NCBI GenBank assembly: GCA_041483895.1 | Contig: JBGPGO010000002.1 | Location: 96,001 to 160,000 of the forward strand | From: Fimbriimonadia bacterium | GTDB lineage: Bacteria; Armatimonadota; Fimbriimonadia; Fimbriimonadales; JABRVX01 | Length of the DNA stretch: 64,000 nt | Direction of reading: 5' to 3' | Part shown: positions 8,418 through 21,662 of the stretch, one piece after another | How positions within the stretch are numbered: position 1 is the first letter of the stretch | Layout of the letters: the number at the start of each line of letters is the position of its first letter | Program-made: the position numbers and the translations under genes | The notes under the pieces: model-generated | What the model was told of the DNA's origin: nothing | The model's input: the letters and a program-made list of their open reading frames with translations, nothing else | Database searches by the model: none

Positions 8418-8478
8418 GAAAACAGCCGGTTGCCGTGCCCGAATATTTCAGGTACCCTGACGCGAAAGGGAGTTGCCG

Positions 8479-9585
8479 ATGATTAGTTCACTCATGCTTC
8501 TGTTAGCCGTTGCCGTGCCGCAATCCACGGATGGGCAGGCTTTGTACGATCAGATCAGCGCAAAGCTGACGGCGGCGAAGGGACTATCCGTCGATGCGGA
8601 AATCAGCTTGGCAGGGCAGATCATCAAGACGAGCGCGAAGGCGCTGAAACCGAATTTCTACAACATGGTTGCGGACCAGCAAGAAGCCCATTGCGATGGG
8701 AAGAACGCCTACATATACGTTCCCTCGCAAAAACAGTATTTCAAGATGCCGGTCACCGGCAATGAGCTTCAGCAGGTCGGCTTTCCCGGAATGGAATCGT
8801 TCGTCGCTCCCGAGCCAATTAAGATGACCGTGAAAAGCATGGAGACGAAGACCTTCAATGGCGTCGAAACCAATATGCTGGCGCTCGAAGGACAGATCAA
8901 TGGCCGCGAACGCAAATACGCCATGTACGTTGCCAAAGATACCGGCCTGCCGGTCGGGATCGAAGACAACAGCGTCCAAGGTTTCCAGCTCAAGATCACA
9001 TACAGGAATCTGGTTCTCGATCCGCCTGATCTGACGCCGGATGCTTTCAAATGGGCGCCACCAGCCGACGCCAAGGAGGCCGTTCAGGAGACCGGCGAAT
9101 TGAACCCGGCTCTGCTGAAAGTCGGCGCAACGGCGCCGAAATTCTCCGTAAAGCTGGCGAGTGGGGGAACAACGAGCCTGGCCGCGCTCCTGCCTAAGAG
9201 CAAGGCCGTCCTCGTCACGTTTTGGTTCTCCGAATGCGAAGACTTTCCACAGATGCAAAAGCTGTATTCGGAGTATAAGGCGAAAGGGCTCGCGATAGTC
9301 GCCGTGAACTACCAAGATTCGGCGGATGCCATCAAAAAATATGCCAAGACTGTCAAAGCGACGTTTCCGTTGGCGATGAATGGCATTGGCACGGGGGATG
9401 CCGTCAAGCTGTACGGCGTCAAGGCGTTCCCGACAAGCTATCTTGTCAACTCCAAAGGCAAAATCGTGTGGGCCTCGATCGCATACGACGATGCCGGTCT
9501 GCGTAAGGCGCTGAAGGGTTTGATCGCCGCAACGACAGGGAAGAAACCTGCGCCTAAAAAGCCCGCGAAGAAAAAGAGCGGTTAG
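8479..9585 (+). CDS. Secreted LolA-like + TlpA/redoxin fusion protein with a single-Cys active site
   Basis: Signal peptide; LolA-like N-domain (KPNFY...CDGKNAYIYVP); GATAPKFS, VTFWFSEC, YGVKAFPTSYLVN thioredoxin-fold motifs; Lys-rich tail. Confidence 0.75.
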   Translation: MISSLMLLLAVAVPQSTDGQALYDQISAKLTAAKGLSVDAEISLAGQIIKTSAKALKPNFYNMVADQQEAHCDGKNAYIYVPSQKQYFKMPVTGNELQQVGFPGMESFVAPEPIKMTVKSMETKTFNGVETNMLALEGQINGRERKYAMYVAKDTGLPVGIEDNSVQGFQLKITYRNLVLDPPDLTPDAFKWAPPADAKEAVQETGELNPALLKVGATAPKFSVKLASGGTTSLAALLPKSKAVLVTFWFSECEDFPQMQKLYSEYKAKGLAIVAVNYQDSADAIKKYAKTVKATFPLAMNGIGTGDAVKLYGVKAFPTSYLVNSKGKIVWASIAYDDAGLRKALKGLIAATTGKKPAPKKPAKKKSG

Positions 9586-12537: not shown

Positions 12538-14817
12538 CTAATTCCAGAACGCGGCGTTGGCCATTTCGATGAGGAGACAGCCAACCGGTTCCTCGGTGCT
12601 ATCGATGAGGTAGCCAGGCTGGAACCGGAGGTCGCCGTGATTCCGGCTGATAAAGTCATCAAAGTTGGTCGAAGCGAACGCAACGATCGTTTCGATCTGG
12701 AGAAGGGAATCGAGATCGTCCGGAATGTCGAGCGCGGCAAAGAGAGCGTCTCTCACGTCGTCCGCTATCTTGCATTTCTGGGTTACCCCGATGGCGACCG
12801 TCGAGAAGTATTCGACATTGCAGCGCAGGTCGTCGCGTGTCGGCACCTTCACCTGGAAGCCAAGCTCCGCCGCGTAGGGACCGTCCGGCGGCTTGCTGCC
12901 GTTGGAGAGCACATAGATAACGGTCAGCGTGTACCGGGTGCCGGGTGGCGAGAACAGCAGGCATCGAGTGCCAAGGCAAGGCCCTGTCGGAGGCCGCTGC
13001 AAGGCGACGCTGCACACCGGATAATCCAAGTCCGCGTTCGTTGCCTTCTTAAGACTCGTCGCGAAGTTGGTATTGAGGTCTGAGCCGATGCCGGTGACAA
13101 AGAGTGTGCACTTTAGCACTGGCGTCACCTTGCTGAGCTTGACCGCTTGAACAATCACTCGCGTCATGTCCACGAATTTGCATTCGAGAACGTCGCGTAT
13201 CGTGATATCATCCAAATTGATCACTTCTGGCCGGAAGATCCTGTGAAGTTCACCGTTGAGCAGATCGCGGCAGATTGGGCTGGTGCAGATCAGGTTCGGC
13301 AACAGCGACGTGTCGCACGGTTTCGCCACTACGTTGACGCTGGTGGAGCAGCCATTTTGGTTGGTTCCATCGCTGACGTTGATCGCTATCACCGATTCGC
13401 CGATCGGATATTCATAGGTGAATTCAAAATCCATCACAGTTGGCGCCGGACCGGCCGACTTCGTCTGTGTATGTACAGGGACGCCACCCACGTACCAGAT
13501 GATAGTGAGACCATCGCCGGTGATATCCTCGGCATGCCCCCTCAGCGTGACCTTGCCACCGTTCTTTGTGTTTTGGTCTATCGTAACTGGGAGCGGGCAC
13601 TGAATCGTCGGACCTGAATTCGTTATCGTGACCGAAGAATCGCATGTGGTGGGATCGGTCTTTCCGTCGGTAACGGATACCGTAATTAGGTGCTTCCCGA
13701 CCAAGTATCCGTCCTTAAAGGTGACATCCGCGTCGGTGGGAGGACCGCCTGAAGGCACATTCTGCGTCGATCGGAGAATGCCGTCCACATACCATTTGAC
13801 GACGAGCGGGTCTCCGTCCATGTCTGTTACGTGCGCGAGCAGAGTGACAGGCGTGGTCGGCGATGAAGTCTGCTCCATCGTCACAGGATTCGGACAGTTA
13901 ATGGTGGGCGGTCCGTTGGTCGCGACCGTGATTTCGCCGAGCACCGTCAGGCCGCCAATCTTGGTACTTGCTTTGGCGCCCTGAAATTCGAGTTGCAGCG
14001 CGCCCGTGGCGATGTCAAATTTCCGAATGTATCGCGTTTCCGTCCCCGCGCTCCAGAACGATTTGCCGTTTGGATCAAGATTCAGGGCAAACCAGCGATT
14101 TTCAAAGGAGGTGTCGTAGGTCTTGATGATGTTACCGAAGCCATCGAGTCGCAGAATGTTCTCCGTGTCCGCTACCAGCATCCCTCCGCTGGGTAGCAGA
14201 CGAAACGCGAAGGCAAGGGTGCCGGGCAGGGTCGTAACAAAATCCTCGATCTGCTGCTGCGATTTGATGTCGAACCGCCGGATATGACTGTCCTGCGTCG
14301 TGTAATACATAGTGGTCTGATCGGCGGCGAGGTCCATAGCGGCCGGCCCGCGCCAACCGGTTACCACATCCGAGTTTCCGGTTTGGACACCGACTGGATT
14401 GACTTTCACGATGTTTGCCGTCCCATCGGCCAGACCGACATACACGTTGCCGGCCGCATCAAAGACAACTGATTCCGGGTGAGCGTCATATCCCGATCCA
14501 AACGTGCCAATCTTCTGGCCATTCGGATTGAACACGACAACGTAGCTGGTGTCAAAGATTGTTAGATATAAATTGTTCTTTTGATCGAACGCCATTCCGC
14601 AGCCTTCGCCGAGAATTCCGGCGTCGAGCGTTTTGATCAGCGTGACAACGTTGCCGTTCGGTCTGTACCATTCAATTTTCGCGGTGGAGAACAGACTGCC
14701 ATACGAGACGAAAACGTCGCCCTTTTGAAATGTCTGGGCGCCGGCGCTTGCAGCTATGAGCCCCGCCGATAGGATTCCCGCTAGGCGAAAGATTGACACC
14801 CCATTCGATATCATCAC
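12538..14817 (-). CDS. Secreted protein: beta-propeller + two Ig/PKD-like repeats + conserved Cys-rich C-terminal domain (paralog 1)
   Basis: Signal peptide (..SAGA-Q); NHL-like blades (GMAFD, ESVVFDAAGNVYVG, ALNLDPNG); two P.I.CP.PVT...D..GD.L...WYV.G repeats; last ~260 aa homologous to the two neighbours. Confidence 0.85.
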   Translation of the reverse strand: MMISNGVSIFRLAGILSAGLIAASAGAQTFQKGDVFVSYGSLFSTAKIEWYRPNGNVVTLIKTLDAGILGEGCGMAFDQKNNLYLTIFDTSYVVVFNPNGQKIGTFGSGYDAHPESVVFDAAGNVYVGLADGTANIVKVNPVGVQTGNSDVVTGWRGPAAMDLAADQTTMYYTTQDSHIRRFDIKSQQQIEDFVTTLPGTLAFAFRLLPSGGMLVADTENILRLDGFGNIIKTYDTSFENRWFALNLDPNGKSFWSAGTETRYIRKFDIATGALQLEFQGAKASTKIGGLTVLGEITVATNGPPTINCPNPVTMEQTSSPTTPVTLLAHVTDMDGDPLVVKWYVDGILRSTQNVPSGGPPTDADVTFKDGYLVGKHLITVSVTDGKTDPTTCDSSVTITNSGPTIQCPLPVTIDQNTKNGGKVTLRGHAEDITGDGLTIIWYVGGVPVHTQTKSAGPAPTVMDFEFTYEYPIGESVIAINVSDGTNQNGCSTSVNVVAKPCDTSLLPNLICTSPICRDLLNGELHRIFRPEVINLDDITIRDVLECKFVDMTRVIVQAVKLSKVTPVLKCTLFVTGIGSDLNTNFATSLKKATNADLDYPVCSVALQRPPTGPCLGTRCLLFSPPGTRYTLTVIYVLSNGSKPPDGPYAAELGFQVKVPTRDDLRCNVEYFSTVAIGVTQKCKIADDVRDALFAALDIPDDLDSLLQIETIVAFASTNFDDFISRNHGDLRFQPGYLIDSTEEPVGCLLIEMANAAFWN

Positions 14818-14978
14818 AAACCTCCCCGATTCATCAAAGCATCAGTAAACGCAGTTTTGCATTCCGGCATGATCTGGCCGGCTTTCATATCTTACAACCG
14901 GGTTTAACTTTTCGCCCGCTATATCTCAAAAAAGACGGTAGTAGGGCCGGTAAGGTCTGGTAGTTATTCGGGGGAAGT

Positions 14979-15012
14979 GACGAAAAACAGCGCGGGTCCG
15001 AAGACCCGCGCT
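14979..15012 (-). terminator. Rho-independent terminator
   Basis: AGCGCGGGTC-CGAA-GACCCGCGCT stem (+ strand) followed on the minus strand by GTTTTTCGTC; near-identical copy at 16861. Confidence 0.8.
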
Positions 15013-15035
15013 TGCGCAATAAGACCGTTATCCAC

Positions 15036-16709
15036 CTAATGCCACAACAGCGCATCGGCCATCTCGATAAGGAGACATCCAATTGGCTCTTCTGTGCTAT
15101 CGACCAGGTAATTGGTCTTGAAGCGAACATCGTATACGCCGTCACGGTTCTTCGCCAGCAGGTCGGCAAAGTCTATCGAGCAGAAGGCGATAACAGTTTC
15201 AAACTCCAGAAGCGCCTCGAGATCGATCGGATTGTCGAGCGCGTGATTCAGGGCGGCCGCGCACTCGGAGGTGATCTTGCACTTCTGTGTGACGCCCGCC
15301 GCTACCGTCGAGAAGTATTCGATGTTGCACCGAATGTCATTTCGGGTTGGTACTTGGACAACATAGCATATGTTGACGAAGATGGGCGGGCCCGGCCGGC
15401 CGTTTTCGTCGAGGATTACGTACTGGACCTGCAAAGTGTACGTTGTTAGTGGCGGTGAGAAGAGCAGGCACCGACAGCCGAGACAGGGCTCGCTGGGCGG
15501 CCGTTGCAGAGCGATTTCACATAGGGATCGGTCGAGGTCCGCATTGGTGGCCTTCTTTAGCTTGGAGTCGAAGTTCGTGTTCAATCCCCCACCGGGGCCG
15601 GTCGTAAAGGCCGTGCATTTGATCACCGGCGTGACCTTTGACAAACGGACCGTCTGAATTACCAAGTTCGGATCGCTGATATCCACATCGTTGCACTCCA
15701 ACACGTTGCGCACCGTGATCGGATCAAGGCAGATCACTTCCGGCCGGAAGAGTTCGTTCTGGTCGTTGTTGAACGGGTCCCTCCCATCGTGATCCTTTTC
15801 GCAGATCAAATTGGGCAAGAATGAGCAGCATCCGGACTGAACGTCGATTGTAATCAGCACCAATGCGACGCAATCTTCCGACCTGACATTACTATTCGTT
15901 CCTGTTAGATGGAGATTATTGTTGCCGAGACTTAAGAATGAAGCCAGGTTAAACTTCTTGATGTCCCAGAGCCTGCCGTCGTCACCTGGCCCATTGTTGT
16001 CGCCCGGAACGCTGTCTCCCTGGAAGTTATGGCCCTCCGCCATGAGCAGGGAGCCATTGATTTCGACTCTAGGATCCGGGTAGAAACCGCTGCCAATCTC
16101 ACCATCGGCGGCATGAAATGTAATGTTGGCCGTGCCGCCGGGATACACAACGTCGTCCAGATTTGCATCCCAGCCTTCGGCATCAAAGGCGCTGGGAAAG
16201 CTGGAGTCGTTTCCGTGAAATAGGTAAACGTCCCGATTGTTCAAGGGATTGCCATCGTCAAAGAAGATGACCAAGGAAGCGCCGTTATAATTGGCGAGCT
16301 CGCCATCCTGAAGGTCCGTCAAATCGTACGTTCCGTTTTTCTTCGCGGCAACAATCGCGGTAACGTCCGCTCGGTAGGTTTGAGAATTATCGTAGTCCGT
16401 CCAGCAATTGCTGGACGAGAACCCCAAATTCGTGCCTTTTATCGCGACACCATCGAACTTGAAAGTATAGGCGGCATCGGGATCCGTCGAGCTCGTAACC
16501 GCACCCCAATAAAGGTATGCAGTCTGAACGGAACCGGTAATCCCGACTACCGTTATCTTCCCGGAAGTGTGATCTCGCAAACCTCCGACACCAAATGATG
16601 CGAAATCTGTATTGGCGATCAAAGACCGGGTGGCCTTGCCCAGCGTATTCGACACGCCAAGCATAGGTAAAGTGATCAATACCGCGCACAAGAGCACTCG
16701 ACAGTTCAT
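15036..16709 (-). CDS. Secreted protein: DUF3344-like beta-sandwich cargo + conserved Cys-rich C-terminal domain (paralog 2)
   Basis: Signal peptide; AYLYW, YRADVT, NGASLVIFF motifs; GAAGGAG RBS; shared C-terminal domain. Confidence 0.85.
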   Translation of the reverse strand: MNCRVLLCAVLITLPMLGVSNTLGKATRSLIANTDFASFGVGGLRDHTSGKITVVGITGSVQTAYLYWGAVTSSTDPDAAYTFKFDGVAIKGTNLGFSSSNCWTDYDNSQTYRADVTAIVAAKKNGTYDLTDLQDGELANYNGASLVIFFDDGNPLNNRDVYLFHGNDSSFPSAFDAEGWDANLDDVVYPGGTANITFHAADGEIGSGFYPDPRVEINGSLLMAEGHNFQGDSVPGDNNGPGDDGRLWDIKKFNLASFLSLGNNNLHLTGTNSNVRSEDCVALVLITIDVQSGCCSFLPNLICEKDHDGRDPFNNDQNELFRPEVICLDPITVRNVLECNDVDISDPNLVIQTVRLSKVTPVIKCTAFTTGPGGGLNTNFDSKLKKATNADLDRSLCEIALQRPPSEPCLGCRCLLFSPPLTTYTLQVQYVILDENGRPGPPIFVNICYVVQVPTRNDIRCNIEYFSTVAAGVTQKCKITSECAAALNHALDNPIDLEALLEFETVIAFCSIDFADLLAKNRDGVYDVRFKTNYLVDSTEEPIGCLLIEMADALLWH

Positions 16710-16746
16710 TTCAAACTCTCCTTCGAAAAGCAGTACACCAGACAGG

Positions 16747-16775
16747 ATTGTATCAAAGAATCTCCGGTTAAGCTA
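16747..16775 (-). promoter_or_regulatory. Putative promoter TAGCTT-N17-TACAAT with extended -10
   Basis: GTAGCTTAACC...TTTGATACAAT is conserved with identical spacing upstream of both paralogs 2 and 3, 38 nt from each start. Confidence 0.65.
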
Positions 16776-16860
16776 CTGGTTGTAGAAAACTACTGCCTGC
16801 GTGCCATCCCTTCCCCATACGCGCACAGGGCGGGAAGTTCTAATAGTGCCGTTTGTTTCT

Positions 16861-16893
16861 GACGAAAAACAGCGCGGGCCCGAAGACCCGCGC
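16861..16893 (-). terminator. Rho-independent terminator
   Basis: GCGCGGGCC-CGAA-GACCCGCGC hairpin with minus-strand U-tract; paralogous to 14979-15012. Confidence 0.8.
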
Positions 16894-16911
16894 CGCTTGA
16901 GGAGAAGCTCT

Positions 16912-18603
16912 CTAATCGTGGAACAGCAACGCATTCGCCATCTCGATTAGCAGGCAGTCAATTGGTTCCTCGACAGAACCCACGATGTAACCGGTCTTGA
17001 ACCGGACGTCGTATTCGTCTCTCTTGTTCTTCTCCAATAGTTTGGAGAAGTCAATCGCGCAATTGGCGACAATGGTTTCGAACTCCAGCAATGCGTCGAG
17101 ATCGTTCTCAATATCCAGAGCGGCATTCAATGCCTCGGCGCAGTCTTCCGTAATCTTACACTTCTGTGTCACGCCCGCCGCCACGGTCATGAAATACTCG
17201 ATGGTGCATCGAATGTCATCACGCGACGGCACCTGGACGATGAAGCATCGCTCGGCGAAGAACGGTTGAGAAATCCCTCCGCCTTCCAACTGGAACACGT
17301 ATACAACCTGCAAGGTATACGTTGTGCCGGGCGGAGAGAAAAGCAGGCATCGATCGCCAAGGCATTGCTCGCCATCCGGCCGTTCGAGCGCAATCTGGCA
17401 CAGCGAAGTGTCAAGATCATCAATCGTTGCCTTATGGAGCTTTGAGTCGAAGTTTGTGTTCAGCCCGGCGCCAATTCCGGTCTCGAAAATGCTGCACTTG
17501 ATCGTCGGAGTAATCTTCGTCAATCGCACGGCCTGGACAATCAGGTCCGGGTCCTCCGTATCGACTCCGTTGCACTCCAAGACGTCACCGACTGTGATGC
17601 CGTCGACGTTGATCACTTCAGGCCGGAAGATCGTGGTCGTCTGCTTTGTGAAAGGATCGATGGCGCGTGATTCCTTTTGACAGATGAGATTCGGCACCAA
17701 TGTACAGCACGGTGACACGGTGGGGAAATCCACGGTGATGGCAACGGCGCTCCAGCAGTCCGAGTAATCGCCAAAATCGATGGGTTGAGATGTGAAGTGC
17801 AGGTTGTTGTTACCCAACACAAGGAACGGCGCCAAATCGTACGTCTCGATGTCCCATAGGTTCCCATTGTTGATGGGACCATTGTTATCGGAGGGGACAG
17901 ATTCTCCCTCGAATATTGGACCCGCTGCCAAGAAAAGCGCGCCGTTGATATCGATCTCGGGATCAAGGAAGCCGAAAAACCCATCGTCATCGTTCTGCCC
18001 ATCAGCGACATGGAACGTTATGTTTGCCGTACCGCCTTTGTACGGCAGGTCCTTCAGGTTGATATCCCAATTATCCGTATCATAGGGGTTCGGGATGTTC
18101 GAATCGTTGCCGTGAAACAGATATACGTCTCGGTTGTTGCTCGGATCGCCGTCTTGGAAAAAGATGATGAGCGAGGCGCCATTGAAACTGACGCCATCAT
18201 CTGCACGAAGATCCGTCAGTGCATAGTCGCCATTCCGTTTGGGATCCACAATGGAGGTCACGTCCGCTCGATAGGCCTGCGAATTTGCATAGGGCCAGCA
18301 GTTGCTGCCGGAGAACCCAATGTTGGTGCCGATGATGGTCGTTCCGTCAAACGTGATTGTGCGTGCCGCGTTTGGATCGTCAGTATCGTTCACCGCGTGC
18401 CAATACAAGTACGCTTTCCAGACGTCTCCGGTGATACCGGCAACGGTAATCTTTCCGCTGGTCTGCCCTCGGAGGCCGCCGACTCCGAACGACGCGAAAT
18501 CCGTATTGGCCATCAGCACGGGGCTGGCCTTGTCAAAGTTCTTTGCCGCGCAGAGGATCGGTAGCGCCAATATCGCGGCGCACGCCAAATGTCTCCAGTT
18601 CAA
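16912..18603 (-). CDS. Secreted protein: DUF3344-like cargo + conserved Cys-rich C-terminal domain (paralog 3)
   Basis: Full-length paralog of 15036-16709; TTG start at 18603 chosen from the GAAGGAG RBS, the signal peptide and identical promoter spacing. Confidence 0.85.
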   Translation of the reverse strand: MNWRHLACAAILALPILCAAKNFDKASPVLMANTDFASFGVGGLRGQTSGKITVAGITGDVWKAYLYWHAVNDTDDPNAARTITFDGTTIIGTNIGFSGSNCWPYANSQAYRADVTSIVDPKRNGDYALTDLRADDGVSFNGASLIIFFQDGDPSNNRDVYLFHGNDSNIPNPYDTDNWDINLKDLPYKGGTANITFHVADGQNDDDGFFGFLDPEIDINGALFLAAGPIFEGESVPSDNNGPINNGNLWDIETYDLAPFLVLGNNNLHFTSQPIDFGDYSDCWSAVAITVDFPTVSPCCTLVPNLICQKESRAIDPFTKQTTTIFRPEVINVDGITVGDVLECNGVDTEDPDLIVQAVRLTKITPTIKCSIFETGIGAGLNTNFDSKLHKATIDDLDTSLCQIALERPDGEQCLGDRCLLFSPPGTTYTLQVVYVFQLEGGGISQPFFAERCFIVQVPSRDDIRCTIEYFMTVAAGVTQKCKITEDCAEALNAALDIENDLDALLEFETIVANCAIDFSKLLEKNKRDEYDVRFKTGYIVGSVEEPIDCLLIEMANALLFHD

Positions 18604-18640: not shown

Positions 18641-18669
18641 ATTGTATCAAAAGGACACTGGTTAAGCTA
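18641..18669 (-). promoter_or_regulatory. Putative promoter TAGCTT-N17-TACAAT with extended -10
   Basis: Same motif and spacing as 16747-16775. Confidence 0.65.
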
Positions 18670-18685
18670 CGGGGCGGCAAAAATA

Positions 18686-19309: not shown

Positions 19310-20488
19310 CTACCGATTCCCGAACGAAACATGCAACTCCTGCTCCAGGTGGCGGAGCCGATCTCGTAACGGTGGGAGTTTCACCCGCCTCGCAGTAGAT
19401 GAAATTGTCGGGAGGCCATTGAGTCGATACAGGTTTTCCAGCCCGGATGCGAGCGCGCTTGGATCGCTGAGCGCCAACGCTGCTCTCACGTCGGCTTTAT
19501 GTATCAGATTCTCCCTTATGGACTGCGTGGCAAAATCTGCCATGCTGAACAGGAAGTAGGCGGCAAAACTACCCAGGAGCGGGTAGGCCAAGAAAGTATC
19601 GATGTACCAGGCTGTCGGTATCGACATGAGGCCCATCGCTGTGATAAACCAAGCGACCCCGGAAGGTATCATGAGCAGCCTCTGCGGAGTGCCCGTGTTG
19701 AAAATCCTGCTCTGTACAATCAACGCGACAATCTCTTCGTCCGGCATGTGGTTTAGTAAGTGCTCGGTTAAAGTGACAAGGCCGGCGAGGGCATGGCAAC
19801 CGGCCAAGTGCGCATCGGAATCTGCCGCAACGGATATTCTTACTGTTTTCGCCTTCCCGATCGCGTCGGCCTGACCGACCAAGCGCTTGACGCGATCATC
19901 CGGCAGAACGTGGCTGCTCGTGGCCTTGAGAAATGCAATAGTGGCGGTCGCGACGGCAAAGAACGTGACGATGCCCGCGGATAGAAATATCGGCGAAATC
20001 CATATATTCAGTTCATCAGTCGTCATGGAAGTAAGAGCGGCTTGGCGACAGACTTCTAGCGCTACCAATGTCGATAGGAAAAACATTTCATCCATCAAAT
20101 GCGCGAAGAGCACCTGAAGCATCATCCTGGCGCGTGACCAAGTCGCTCCGCGCATCGCCCTATCAAATTCGTAGTTGCCAGCCACAGATGCCAAGCGAAA
20201 ACCGATGGCCCAGAGTAGCGCCAAAGGAACCGTTAGCCGCCACCAATCGCTGCCAATCTCGTCCGGTCCATAGCATGAAAAGGCGATGAATGCCAGCGGA
20301 AAGGTGCCAAGGAGACGCAGGAATCGGAAGAGATACCGGCGTTGGTGGAGATTTTCCCATGCTCGATCGATTCGGTTGGGGTCGTCGCGGGAAGCACCCA
20401 GGATGCCCGGCAATGTGTATTGGCGTCCGAGCCAATAGGCCCAGATCCAACTGGCGACAATCAGCGCACCGGCAACGGCGATCTCCAT
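19310..20488 (-). CDS. M48-peptidase-like membrane protein lacking HExxH (probable pseudo-peptidase)
   Basis: Homologous to 20490-21662 (NYEFDRAMRGATW vs NFELDRSTRATTW; KAD..A, LASGLENL, PPLRDRL), but HExxH is replaced by VQSRI. Confidence 0.65.
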   Translation of the reverse strand: MEIAVAGALIVASWIWAYWLGRQYTLPGILGASRDDPNRIDRAWENLHQRRYLFRFLRLLGTFPLAFIAFSCYGPDEIGSDWWRLTVPLALLWAIGFRLASVAGNYEFDRAMRGATWSRARMMLQVLFAHLMDEMFFLSTLVALEVCRQAALTSMTTDELNIWISPIFLSAGIVTFFAVATATIAFLKATSSHVLPDDRVKRLVGQADAIGKAKTVRISVAADSDAHLAGCHALAGLVTLTEHLLNHMPDEEIVALIVQSRIFNTGTPQRLLMIPSGVAWFITAMGLMSIPTAWYIDTFLAYPLLGSFAAYFLFSMADFATQSIRENLIHKADVRAALALSDPSALASGLENLYRLNGLPTISSTARRVKLPPLRDRLRHLEQELHVSFGNR

Positions 20489-20489
20489 A

Positions 20490-21662
20490 CTAACGTTCCC
20501 CCTCCACAGACTGAGTGATGCTGAGCGATCGGATTCTGTCCATCCGGGCGGTGAGAGACGGGTGGGTCATCTTGGCCTTCTTTGGGAACTCCGCCGGAAG
20601 AGATGCCAGGTCGTGAATCTTCTCCAACGCCGTTGCCATAGTTTCCGTGTCGCCGATCAGCCGCGCGCCATAGACGTCCGCCGCGAACTCCTGCAGCCGC
20701 GCAAGGCGTCGCATCGCCGCATTGGCCATGGTGAACAAAAGAAACGGGATCACCCAAACCGTCAACGGTGTGTTGCTGAACAGATATTTGATCGTTTCCG
20801 GCGTGGCGAACACGAGAGTCTCGGCGATCAGCAACAGAGGAATGAGCAAGATCGCCTGCCGCTTCCACAAATGCCGCAGGGCGATGTGCGCGATCTCATG
20901 GGCCGCAATCGCGCGAAGCTCTTCCGGCGTCAGGTCCGTTTTGAGAAACTGGCTGATGATGACTCCGCTTTTCGTCGCGAAAGCAAGCGGGATGCGGCCT
21001 CCGGTTTCCCGGATCTCAAACACCTTTGCGGGCTTCACCTTGGCCGTCTCGCACAGCCCACTCACAACCTCGATGAGCGATGCATCTTCCGACCGCTGAA
21101 AGCGCAGGTTTTTCGATACCAGTGCCGCCAACGGCCTTCCGGCAATCATCGCCACCACGGCCGATGCGCCGACGGCAAGACGCCAATACTCGGAATCATA
21201 ATACGCCGGAGCGAGCTGCCGGCAGATTTCCAGAATCAGGATGGCGATCAGCGGAATCATGAGGCGCCAGGTCCAAAACGTCAGCGCATACCGAACAAAG
21301 TCTTGGCTCTGCCATGTCGTTGCGCGGGTGCTGCGGTCCAGTTCAAAGTTGCAGCGTGCCATCACCCATGCGCAACCGGCAAACCATACGAAGGCGATGA
21401 GCGTCAGGAATCGCCAAGCAATGGTCCCAAAATCGGCGTCGATCGTGAGCAGCAAGAAGATGGGTGCGCATGCGGGAATCTGCCATACTCCGACCCTCTC
21501 TTTTCGCGCGATGATACGATCCCATAGCTCCTTGGCGCGATCTCCCCGATCCTCCGGCAGATCACTCAACAGTCCGGTGATGAATCGCCGCATCACCCAG
21601 CCGAGATAGATCCAGCTGATCGGGATCAGGATCAAAGTCGCGATAAGCTTCGTGTCAATCAT
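20490..21662 (-). CDS. M48 (HtpX/Ste24-like) membrane metallopeptidase
   Basis: EELRAIAAHEIAH, QEFAAD, THPSLTARM; multiple TM segments. Confidence 0.9.
   Translation of the reverse strand: MIDTKLIATLILIPISWIYLGWVMRRFITGLLSDLPEDRGDRAKELWDRIIARKERVGVWQIPACAPIFLLLTIDADFGTIAWRFLTLIAFVWFAGCAWVMARCNFELDRSTRATTWQSQDFVRYALTFWTWRLMIPLIAILILEICRQLAPAYYDSEYWRLAVGASAVVAMIAGRPLAALVSKNLRFQRSEDASLIEVVSGLCETAKVKPAKVFEIRETGGRIPLAFATKSGVIISQFLKTDLTPEELRAIAAHEIAHIALRHLWKRQAILLIPLLLIAETLVFATPETIKYLFSNTPLTVWVIPFLLFTMANAAMRRLARLQEFAADVYGARLIGDTETMATALEKIHDLASLPAEFPKKAKMTHPSLTARMDRIRSLSITQSVEGER

Follow-up and report, generated by a model that had tools for sequence, protein, structure and literature searches.

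A conserved C-terminal domain of exported Fimbriimonadia proteins: a candidate self-pairing building block of the cell envelope

Introduction

A common domain recurs on paralogous proteins in the surface-layer (S-layer) families of Clostridioides difficile (SlpA/Cwp, with CWB2) and Bacillus anthracis (Sap/EA1/BSL, with SLH), and in chaperone-usher pili a major pilin is combined with adhesins that carry a fused pilin domain and with a periplasmic chaperone. Here we describe a domain of about 260 residues that ends three neighboring exported proteins encoded within a 64,000-nucleotide stretch of DNA (the window) from a Fimbriimonadia bacterium of the phylum Armatimonadota, the genome being coded G000 below. 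The same domain is carried by all three genes and is found also alone, as an exported protein that is predicted to be abundant and is encoded beside a partner gene. For this reason we read it as a self-pairing building block of the envelope, in which abundant cargo-free subunits and minor cargo-fused subunits would co-assemble and display the cargo, and we give this reading a probability of roughly 0.55. Members of the phylum are double-membrane Terrabacteria, according to a study that includes electron cryo-microscopy of one isolate (PMC11535203). In the literature covered, which was mostly open-access and consisted of papers without their supplements, we found no description of this domain family or of structural surface proteins of Armatimonadota.

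The likeness to the S-layer families lies in one very abundant subunit (here predicted from codon usage) accompanied by minor enzyme or adhesin paralogues with a common terminal module, in the presence of signal peptides and a helical attachment part, and in self-association of the subunit, which for our family is predicted, and for the second of its two clades (clade B; the window proteins belong to clade A). In contrast to those families, our domain has no SLH or CWB2 match and is a single 260-residue disulfide sandwich-plus-bundle unit, the phylum is diderm, a dedicated DUF4412-like partner is present, and our model gives a dimer rather than a lattice. As in chaperone-usher pili, there are arrays of cargo-free subunits, cargo lies N-terminal to the same domain, a gene for an exported partner follows directly 3', strands are exchanged between subunits (here in a model), and the clade B cargo-free proteins have a conserved N-terminal stretch that is missing from the cargo-fused ones. 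However, the partner is DUF4412-like and not PapD-like, the predicted contact is two-fold and not head-to-tail, and pilins have no helical bundle. No outer-membrane usher was seen among the neighboring genes scanned, no genome-wide search for one having been made.

Four-helix bundles also end exported proteins of the FIMAH type (PF22888) and the GH92 enzyme of Neobacillus novalis (7nsn), and our domain shows profile similarity in clade B and structural similarity in the window. Yet no member reaches FIMAH at the Pfam cut-off, the bundle is here fused and disulfide-linked to a beta-sandwich, and the assignment of the 7nsn bundle to FIMAH is unconfirmed. With PEP-CTERM/exosortase signals and the type IX C-terminal domain (CTD), our domain has in common a C-terminal position on unrelated exported cargo and many copies per genome, but the window domain is far longer, is without a transmembrane (TM) tail or motif, and has cargo-free and tandem forms. 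The components themselves have no earlier description, and their logic is a familiar one: the system may work like an S-layer family with cargo paralogues, or like a pilus in which some subunits are fused to adhesins and a chaperone assists.

Results and discussion

The shared domain of the window proteins

Three intact open reading frames (ORFs) on the minus strand occupy positions 12538..18603, and each begins with a signal-like hydrophobic stretch. The features of this region are as follows, with their basis in parentheses.

12538..14814, minus strand: gene 1, 758 residues; signal peptide, beta-propeller, two immunoglobulin (Ig)-like repeats and shared domain (ORF and weak profile matches)
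13924..14736, minus strand: beta-propeller cargo of gene 1, limits approximate (weak matches and sequence)
13327..13923, minus strand: two Ig-like repeats of gene 1, limits approximate (profile matches)
12538..13320, minus strand: shared domain, copy 1 (alignment)
14989..15012, minus strand: terminator-like hairpin and T run 3' of gene 2 (called by scan)
15036..16709, minus strand: gene 2, 557 residues; duplicate of gene 3, cargo 60% and domain 65% identical (alignment)
15357..15833, minus strand: predicted Ig-like beta-sandwich half of copy 2, model residues 1–159, with RPEVI and LLFSPP motifs and core Cys365 (AlphaFold2)
15036..15356, minus strand: predicted FIMAH-like four-helix bundle half of copy 2, model residues 160–265, with core Cys545 (AlphaFold2)
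16747..16776, minus strand: box upstream of gene 2, common to gene 3 (sequence comparison)
16871..16894, minus strand: hairpin and T run 3' of gene 3, near-identical to that of gene 2 (sequence inspection, without a scan call)
16912..18603, minus strand: gene 3, 563 residues; signal peptide, DUF3344-like beta-rich cargo and shared domain (ORF and profile match)
16912..17712, minus strand: shared domain, copy 3 (alignment)
18641..18670, minus strand: box upstream of gene 3, common to gene 2; promoter-like by inspection only (absent from the predicted sigma-70-type sites)

The last ~260 residues of the three proteins align end to end with 55–65% identity, and tblastn comparisons between the copies gave expectation values (E) of 1e-82 to 1e-110, figures which argue that the likeness is not due to chance and which bear out the preliminary description of one conserved domain at the end of all three proteins. 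The consensus motif string given in that description is likewise present in the three copies. It also reported nine invariant cysteine (Cys) residues. This is correct for the three window copies, in which there are ten when the linker Cys is counted, but it does not hold across 45 clade A sequences, where only 2 of the 9 are family-wide: a single near-invariant pair, kept in 44 of 45, joins the beta and helical halves. Counterparts of this core pair are present in 85–86 of 86 clade B sequences. Cys residues of the family are gained and lost in pairs (phi 0.74–1.0), and from this covariation the paired residues are likely to form disulfides. Since the nine Cys vary pairwise, we rejected their interpretation as a metal or catalytic site.

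The gene 1 cargo gave weak Pfam matches to propeller models (SGL, SBBP, SSL_N) and matches to Ig models (Big_9, cadherin-like), and the gene 3 cargo matched DUF3344 at E 3e-4, below the Pfam cut-off. The N-terminal parts had been described as unrelated, which is so for the propeller/Ig cargo in comparison with the DUF3344-like cargo. Genes 2 and 3, however, are duplicated over their whole length, with N-termini 60% identical and with the upstream box and the hairpin in common, so that the window holds two cargo types and not three. Gene 3 starts with TTG, preceded by a GAAGGAGAG site.

By sequence, hydropathy, and Pfam and NCBIfam models, the C-termini contain no PEP-CTERM or LPxTG motif, TM helix or basic tail; no segment in the last 60 residues reaches TM strength (maximum Kyte-Doolittle 19-mer 0.9–1.4). 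Models of the type IX Por secretion tail did not match the domain, which is 260 residues long with a helical end, in contrast to the short beta CTD, and Pfam gave no SLH or CWB2 match in either clade. Searches of Pfam, NCBIfam and PDB sequences yielded for the domain neither a named family nor a match to catalytic families. Thus, the earlier statements that the proteins lack a TM tail or known sorting motif, and that the domain belongs to no named family, agree with the hydropathy and model searches. The ESM Atlas gave no usable domain match, a result that is informative on neither absence nor novelty, and no copy was found in viral contigs, leaving phage carriage unsupported. Both cargo types had been noted as ones that elsewhere precede sorting signals such as PEP-CTERM. 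On this point, the window proteins matched NCBIfam families of the PEP-CTERM and myxosortase types weakly, and G000 yielded no paralogue of their cargo with a PEP-CTERM signal. Separately, 92 ORFs of G000 fit a loose PEP-CTERM pattern, most of them plausibly, and many lie in tandem runs on contigs C8, C11, C12 and C29.

Cargo-free genes and their codon usage

G000 has 10 copies of the domain: the 3 in the window, 3 behind stalks of Ig repeats, 1 cut by a contig end, and 3 that are cargo-free and consist only of a signal peptide, a short Asn/Gly-rich linker and the domain. An ORF that leaves the start of contig C19 without its C-terminus (L002:2-1108) and a domain fragment that starts C25 (L006:3-545) may be two ends of one gene. 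Clade A was found in 3 of 41 genomes searched, namely G000 and the two further genomes of its family, with 7 and 8 matches, whereas the 38 other genomes of the order gave 0; a scan of genome contigs gave loci from one genome, named as a Fimbriimonadales bacterium. A profile search of 1.84 billion representative sequences returned 22 matches to the clade A domain. P0017 has two tandem copies, the second incomplete, and in P0023, P0024 and P0044 the domain directly follows the signal peptide.

We took likeness to ribosomal codon usage as a proxy for abundance. By this measure, the cargo-free gene on contig C9 of G000 takes 6th place among 2021 ORFs, with GroEL and EF-Tu on either side, and lies at the 99.1–99.8th percentile under five reference sets; the window genes are average (31st–57th percentile). 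The highest cargo-free gene in each of five relatives, for which the backgrounds were small, ranked 1/70, 1/66, 2/45, 3/71 and 11/74 (the G172 cargo-free gene was scored separately from the initially filtered set), and overall one cargo-free gene was top-ranked in 5 of 6 genomes. Because one such gene ranks high and its paralogues are average or low, codon usage suggests one major and several minor subunits.

A second clade and its architectures

When the clade A profile was applied to 401 genomes of the phylum, it gave one weak match outside the clade (E 6e-4), at the C-terminus of an M6 protease; the adjoining gene encodes an M4 protease with a twin domain. Clade B is present in 24 of the 401 genomes, in four families (18/28, 3/11, 2/6 and 1/6). 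The two clades align by HHalign at 95.8% (E 8e-9, 127 columns; 91% and 87% with smaller alignments), their motifs are colinear, and the two best matches of the clade B profile in G000 are clade A genes (E 0.003 and 0.005). Clade B homologues comprise 52 long proteins and, by a mixed profile, 351 short ones, 120 of these among the matches listed. The named sources among the matches listed are Armatimonadota, one Coriobacteriia metagenome-assembled genome (MAG) and one unclassified bacterium; a clade B protein with ice-binding cargo, P0062, comes from a 6-kilobase (kb) contig of the named Coriobacteriia MAG. A mixed profile found no new carriers, only two known ones, over 44 chosen genomes, and at 20 loci around weak partner-like matches plus two unclear genomes there were no domain genes except a divergent copy in G196. 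This copy (L146:1477-2337) contains an inserted helical segment and, close to its start, an in-frame TAG, and may represent a third clade or a broken gene. Also, cargo-free genes split over two frames were seen at L120:8494-9632 (G420) and G410:C26:8010-8683, either as assembly errors or through decay.

The cargo of the family includes M4, M6, NlpC/P60 and C39-like peptidases, ice-binding, LamG, HYR, DUF11 and SdrD-B domains, and propellers. Among 219 non-redundant database proteins, the domain is terminal in 214; a further 2 are truncated, and 3 have tandem copies (2x, 4x and 4x, the last two being P0052 and P0053). The diverse exported cargo, the C-terminal position and the restricted range, which is patchy and confined largely to the phylum, all conform to what the preliminary description led one to expect. 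The domain is non-terminal in four proteins, and in P0052, P0053 and the locus protein L115 it is followed by a different C-terminal repeat. Cargo-free proteins make up 145 of the 219, a count that is no census, as the searches were length-limited, and G358 and G390 have arrays of 5–6 neighboring cargo-free genes. The existence of stand-alone copies behind a signal peptide (3 in G000) and of non-terminal copies in four proteins speaks against a sorting-signal-like module, one of the ways in which the domain had at first been viewed; stand-alone occurrence had been named there as a refuting outcome.

A different, twofold repeat of ~200 residues, which we take to be OB-fold-like, ends P0052, P0053 and large exported proteins near clade B loci (L107:6238-11493, L110:9576-13787, L112:14177-18298 and L118:2205-7451 are examples). 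A profile built from seven of these tails matched 19 neighbor proteins and nothing in G000. By sequence, the repeat looks like a second, separate Armatimonadota terminal module.

Partner genes

To the 3' side of clade B cargo-free genes are found genes for an exported protein of 225 residues and for a UshA-like protein in which a CxC motif is combined with four haem motifs, the latter protein matching NF041198 below the cut-off. Searches of Pfam, NCBIfam and PDB gave no match to the 225-residue partner. By its Atlas features it falls near clusters of DUF4412 (0.94; the family is found on 10% and 52% of members), which has a LolA-type fold. Strong matches to the partner (E < 1e-50) occur in 23 of 401 genomes; 22 of these 23 carry the domain, and 22 of the 24 domain carriers have the partner. 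In 21 of the 22 genomes the partner match begins 124–762 bases 3' of the cargo-free gene match, and in the remaining one it lies at a contig start. G278 has a strong partner gene, ~1 kb from a contig end, and no domain match, and weak partner relatives without the domain are present in ~80 further genomes. In G000 the single significant partner homologue (E 6e-10) sits immediately upstream of a cargo-free gene, and in both other clade A family members a homologue is adjacent as well (3 of 3 clade A genomes). This linkage, which spans two clades that barely detect each other, is the strongest sign that we are dealing with one system, and it supplies the co-occurring gene that had been anticipated.

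The UshA-like/cytochrome c554 gene of clade B gave strong matches in 21 of 24 carriers and in 0 of 41 chosen control non-carriers, and it adjoins the partner gene in 20 of 21. As a clade A partner it is doubtful, since its type is found across the order. Relatives of this gene, for example G285:C3:201289-202617 and G231:C28:150284-151612, have one in-frame TGA, consistent with selenocysteine; the domain-linked copies have CxC and no TGA.

So tight a linkage in clade B would be expected if the domain were itself the working part of these proteins, acting in the periplasm as an enzyme or as a ligand-binding dimer and forming a redox module together with the CxC/tetrahaem protein, with the N-termini as accessories. 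The conserved polar residues and Trp-rich motifs of the domain would also be accounted for, as would its ability to precede another terminal module in the manner of cargo. However, the domain matched no catalytic family, many of the conserved residues lie in a predicted interface (see below), complete M4, M6 and NlpC/P60 enzymes as well as ice-binding domains occur among the N-termini and are unlikely accessories of one enzyme, and the type of cytochrome gene seen in clade A is order-wide. We regard this explanation as very improbable.

In four clade B genomes (G358, G390, G059 and G172) a Tad-type operon, with secretin, TadG-like and other genes, lies beside cargo-fused genes (L107:15028-19998; L109:15552-19845 and L110:2-4257; L116:2-7036; L118:13312-20000 and L119:1-2785). 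Three of the four operons are preceded by a gene for an exported protein of ~285 residues with a faint beta-barrel match (E 0.04).

Export targeting, with the domain as a signal comparable to the type IX CTD, the DUF4412-like protein as a shuttle and a Tad-type secretin as the pore, would make sense of these neighboring operons, of the dedicated exported partner and of the C-terminal position in 214 of 219 proteins. Less easily reconciled with a signal are the cargo-free, tandem and non-terminal forms, and the 260-residue size and predicted self-interface of the domain; moreover, the three secretin homologues of G000 are all away from its domain genes, and a search of this genome with three other Tad-operon genes gave no homologue. 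Export targeting as the sole role appears distinctly unlikely to us, although the domain could act as an export signal in addition to assembling.

Predicted fold

AlphaFold2 modeled copy 2 with a predicted local distance difference test (pLDDT) score of 89.8 and a predicted template modeling (pTM) score of 0.84, as a beta-rich half (1–159) and a four-helix half (160–265) with helices at 164–176, 189–199, 204–218 and 251–263. The closest structural match to this copy was the C-terminal four-helix bundle of a GH92 mannosidase (7nsn 1322–1407; root-mean-square deviation 2.4, 74 residues) at Z 8.8, a level within reach of common helical bundles. In the paper on that enzyme, deletion of the bundle lowered stability and about halved binding to yeast wall extract, and no function is assigned to the bundle (PMC10167667).

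With an alignment built from FIMAH domains of the phylum, HHalign scored the clade B helical half at 81–82% (E 1e-5, score 34, in comparison with ≤15 for 40 shuffles), and the clade A half at 0.5%, within the shuffle range. The curated cut-off of PF22888 was not reached, there being 0 of 29 matches in clade A and 2 of 51 sub-threshold matches in clade B (best E 0.071); the FIMAH Pfam model matched nothing anywhere in G000, and 7nsn was not among the PDB matches of a FIMAH profile. The clade B beta half, predicted at pLDDT 94.5, resembled generic Ig folds only in the VIA structure comparison (best Z 5.4), where no pilin, TasA or S-layer domain was prominent, a result that does not exclude such relatives. 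Foldseek gave nothing at E 0.001 for the whole domain (PDB, BFVD) or for the clade B beta half, and its weak rows for this half included ester-bond adhesin repeats (E 0.08). The models thus predict an Ig-like sandwich joined to a four-helix bundle that resembles FIMAH, the two being locked by a single conserved Cys pair. The likeness of the helical bundle to FIMAH, noticed earlier, is thereby supported by fold prediction and by the profile similarity of the second clade.

These resemblances bring up the possibility of an envelope-binding anchor like SLH or CWB2, in which the bundle would grip a wall or outer-membrane glycan and dimers would merely add avidity, each protein binding by itself with no common scaffold. 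The FIMAH likeness of the clade B helical half and the C-terminal place behind stalks fit such an anchor, as does the likeness to the GH92 bundle, given the loss of half the binding to yeast wall extract on its deletion (PMC10167667). An anchor that carries nothing would serve little purpose, but the cargo-free genes are numerous, occur in arrays and have a predicted high abundance; further, common helical bundles can attain Z 8.8, the clade A helical half has no FIMAH profile match, and another C-terminal module follows the domain in three proteins. On balance we think an anchor of this kind unlikely.

Predicted self-association

We predicted a complex of three copies of a clade B cargo-free protein from its own alignment, along with three controls. 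The self-complex scored 0.77 and the best control 0.00; in calibration, which is rough for three copies and an own alignment, 20 of 30 solved pairs attained the mark, as did 1 of 23 single chains. The runs showed at least 81% contact agreement, with a partner pLDDT of at least 86. Contacts were listed between two of the three copies only, and since they involve the same residues on both sides in reciprocal pairs, we read the model as a two-fold dimer, in which residues 28–34 would pair with strand 47–51 of the neighbor. Such a dimer fits the tandem fusions of two and four domains.

The predicted interface contains 22 of 51 conserved columns, as against 27% expected (P 0.005), and it is kept above the rest of the domain in cargo-fused copies (63% vs 54%) and in tandem copies (55% vs 41%). 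Three interface segments align with the most conserved motifs of clade A, and the window copies keep them with one deviation in copy 3; the N-terminal 9 residues of the clade B protein are outside the listed interface. Of the three roles considered in the preliminary description, namely anchoring, polymerization and export targeting, the evidence favors self-association.

Assessment and proposed assembly

Signal peptides, the presence of cargo-free and cargo-fused forms within the same genomes, arrays, tandem fusions, Cys covariation and partner linkage are all established by sequence; the fold, the large two-fold interface and the abundance of one cargo-free gene are predicted. Several points weigh against a self-pairing building block. 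The complex was modeled for the distant clade B and not for the window proteins, its transfer to clade A is by homology (HHalign 87–96%) that covers only the C-terminal ~130 columns, and no clade A counterpart of the swapped strand is certain. With contacts for two of the three copies, the model is of a dimer and not of a lattice or fibre. Among the 25 best interface pairs, no more than 3 rank within the top 500 of 35,778 covarying pairs, and covariation does not distinguish intra-chain from inter-chain pairs. The adjacent partner cases are not independent, as 7 of the 21 adjacent partner genes were used in building the profile and most carriers come from one family. Finally, abundance is judged by the proxy of codon usage, for which the relatives offer small backgrounds; the best cargo-free gene of G358 ranks only 11/74, and other cargo-free paralogues are average or low (C25, 5th–47th percentile; G172, 66/66).

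In the assembly that we propose, the domain proteins would be exported by Sec and would acquire their disulfides during periplasmic folding, aided by the DUF4412-like partner and, in clade B, also by the CxC/tetrahaem protein. Cargo-fused minor subunits would pair with the abundant cargo-free subunit by the one conserved face that both have, and propellers, Ig stalks, proteases and adhesins would thereby be displayed; the adhesin- and protease-type nature of the stalked cargo points to its facing outward. The pairs may pack further into a layer or fibre, and the helical bundle perhaps attaches the assembly to the envelope. A more specific proposal, which we advance tentatively and at less than even odds, is that of an undescribed Armatimonadota system of S-layer or fibre type, in which the disulfide-locked unit polymerizes with the DUF4412-like protein as assembly factor and, in clade B, a CxC/multihaem catalyst, and in which fused proteins are co-assembled without a sortase, lipid anchor or TM tail.

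Two other loci in the window may be recorded. A gene at 8473-9585, 3 kb from the Cys-rich genes, encodes an exported protein that ends in an AhpC/redoxin domain and whose N-terminal part is unannotated. At 19310-21662 are genes for two tandem membrane proteins, the second with HExxH (M48/HtpX-like by inspection) and the first apparently without it.

Significance

The family offers a concrete candidate for a predicted major envelope protein with cargo-bearing variants and a dedicated partner, all amenable to expression in a laboratory host. If our reading is true, it would give a first functional context to a FIMAH-like bundle and to a DUF4412-like protein, both without a known role, and a unit of 260 residues that tolerates as many as ~1,600 residues of cargo at its N-terminus would be of use as a scaffold for display.

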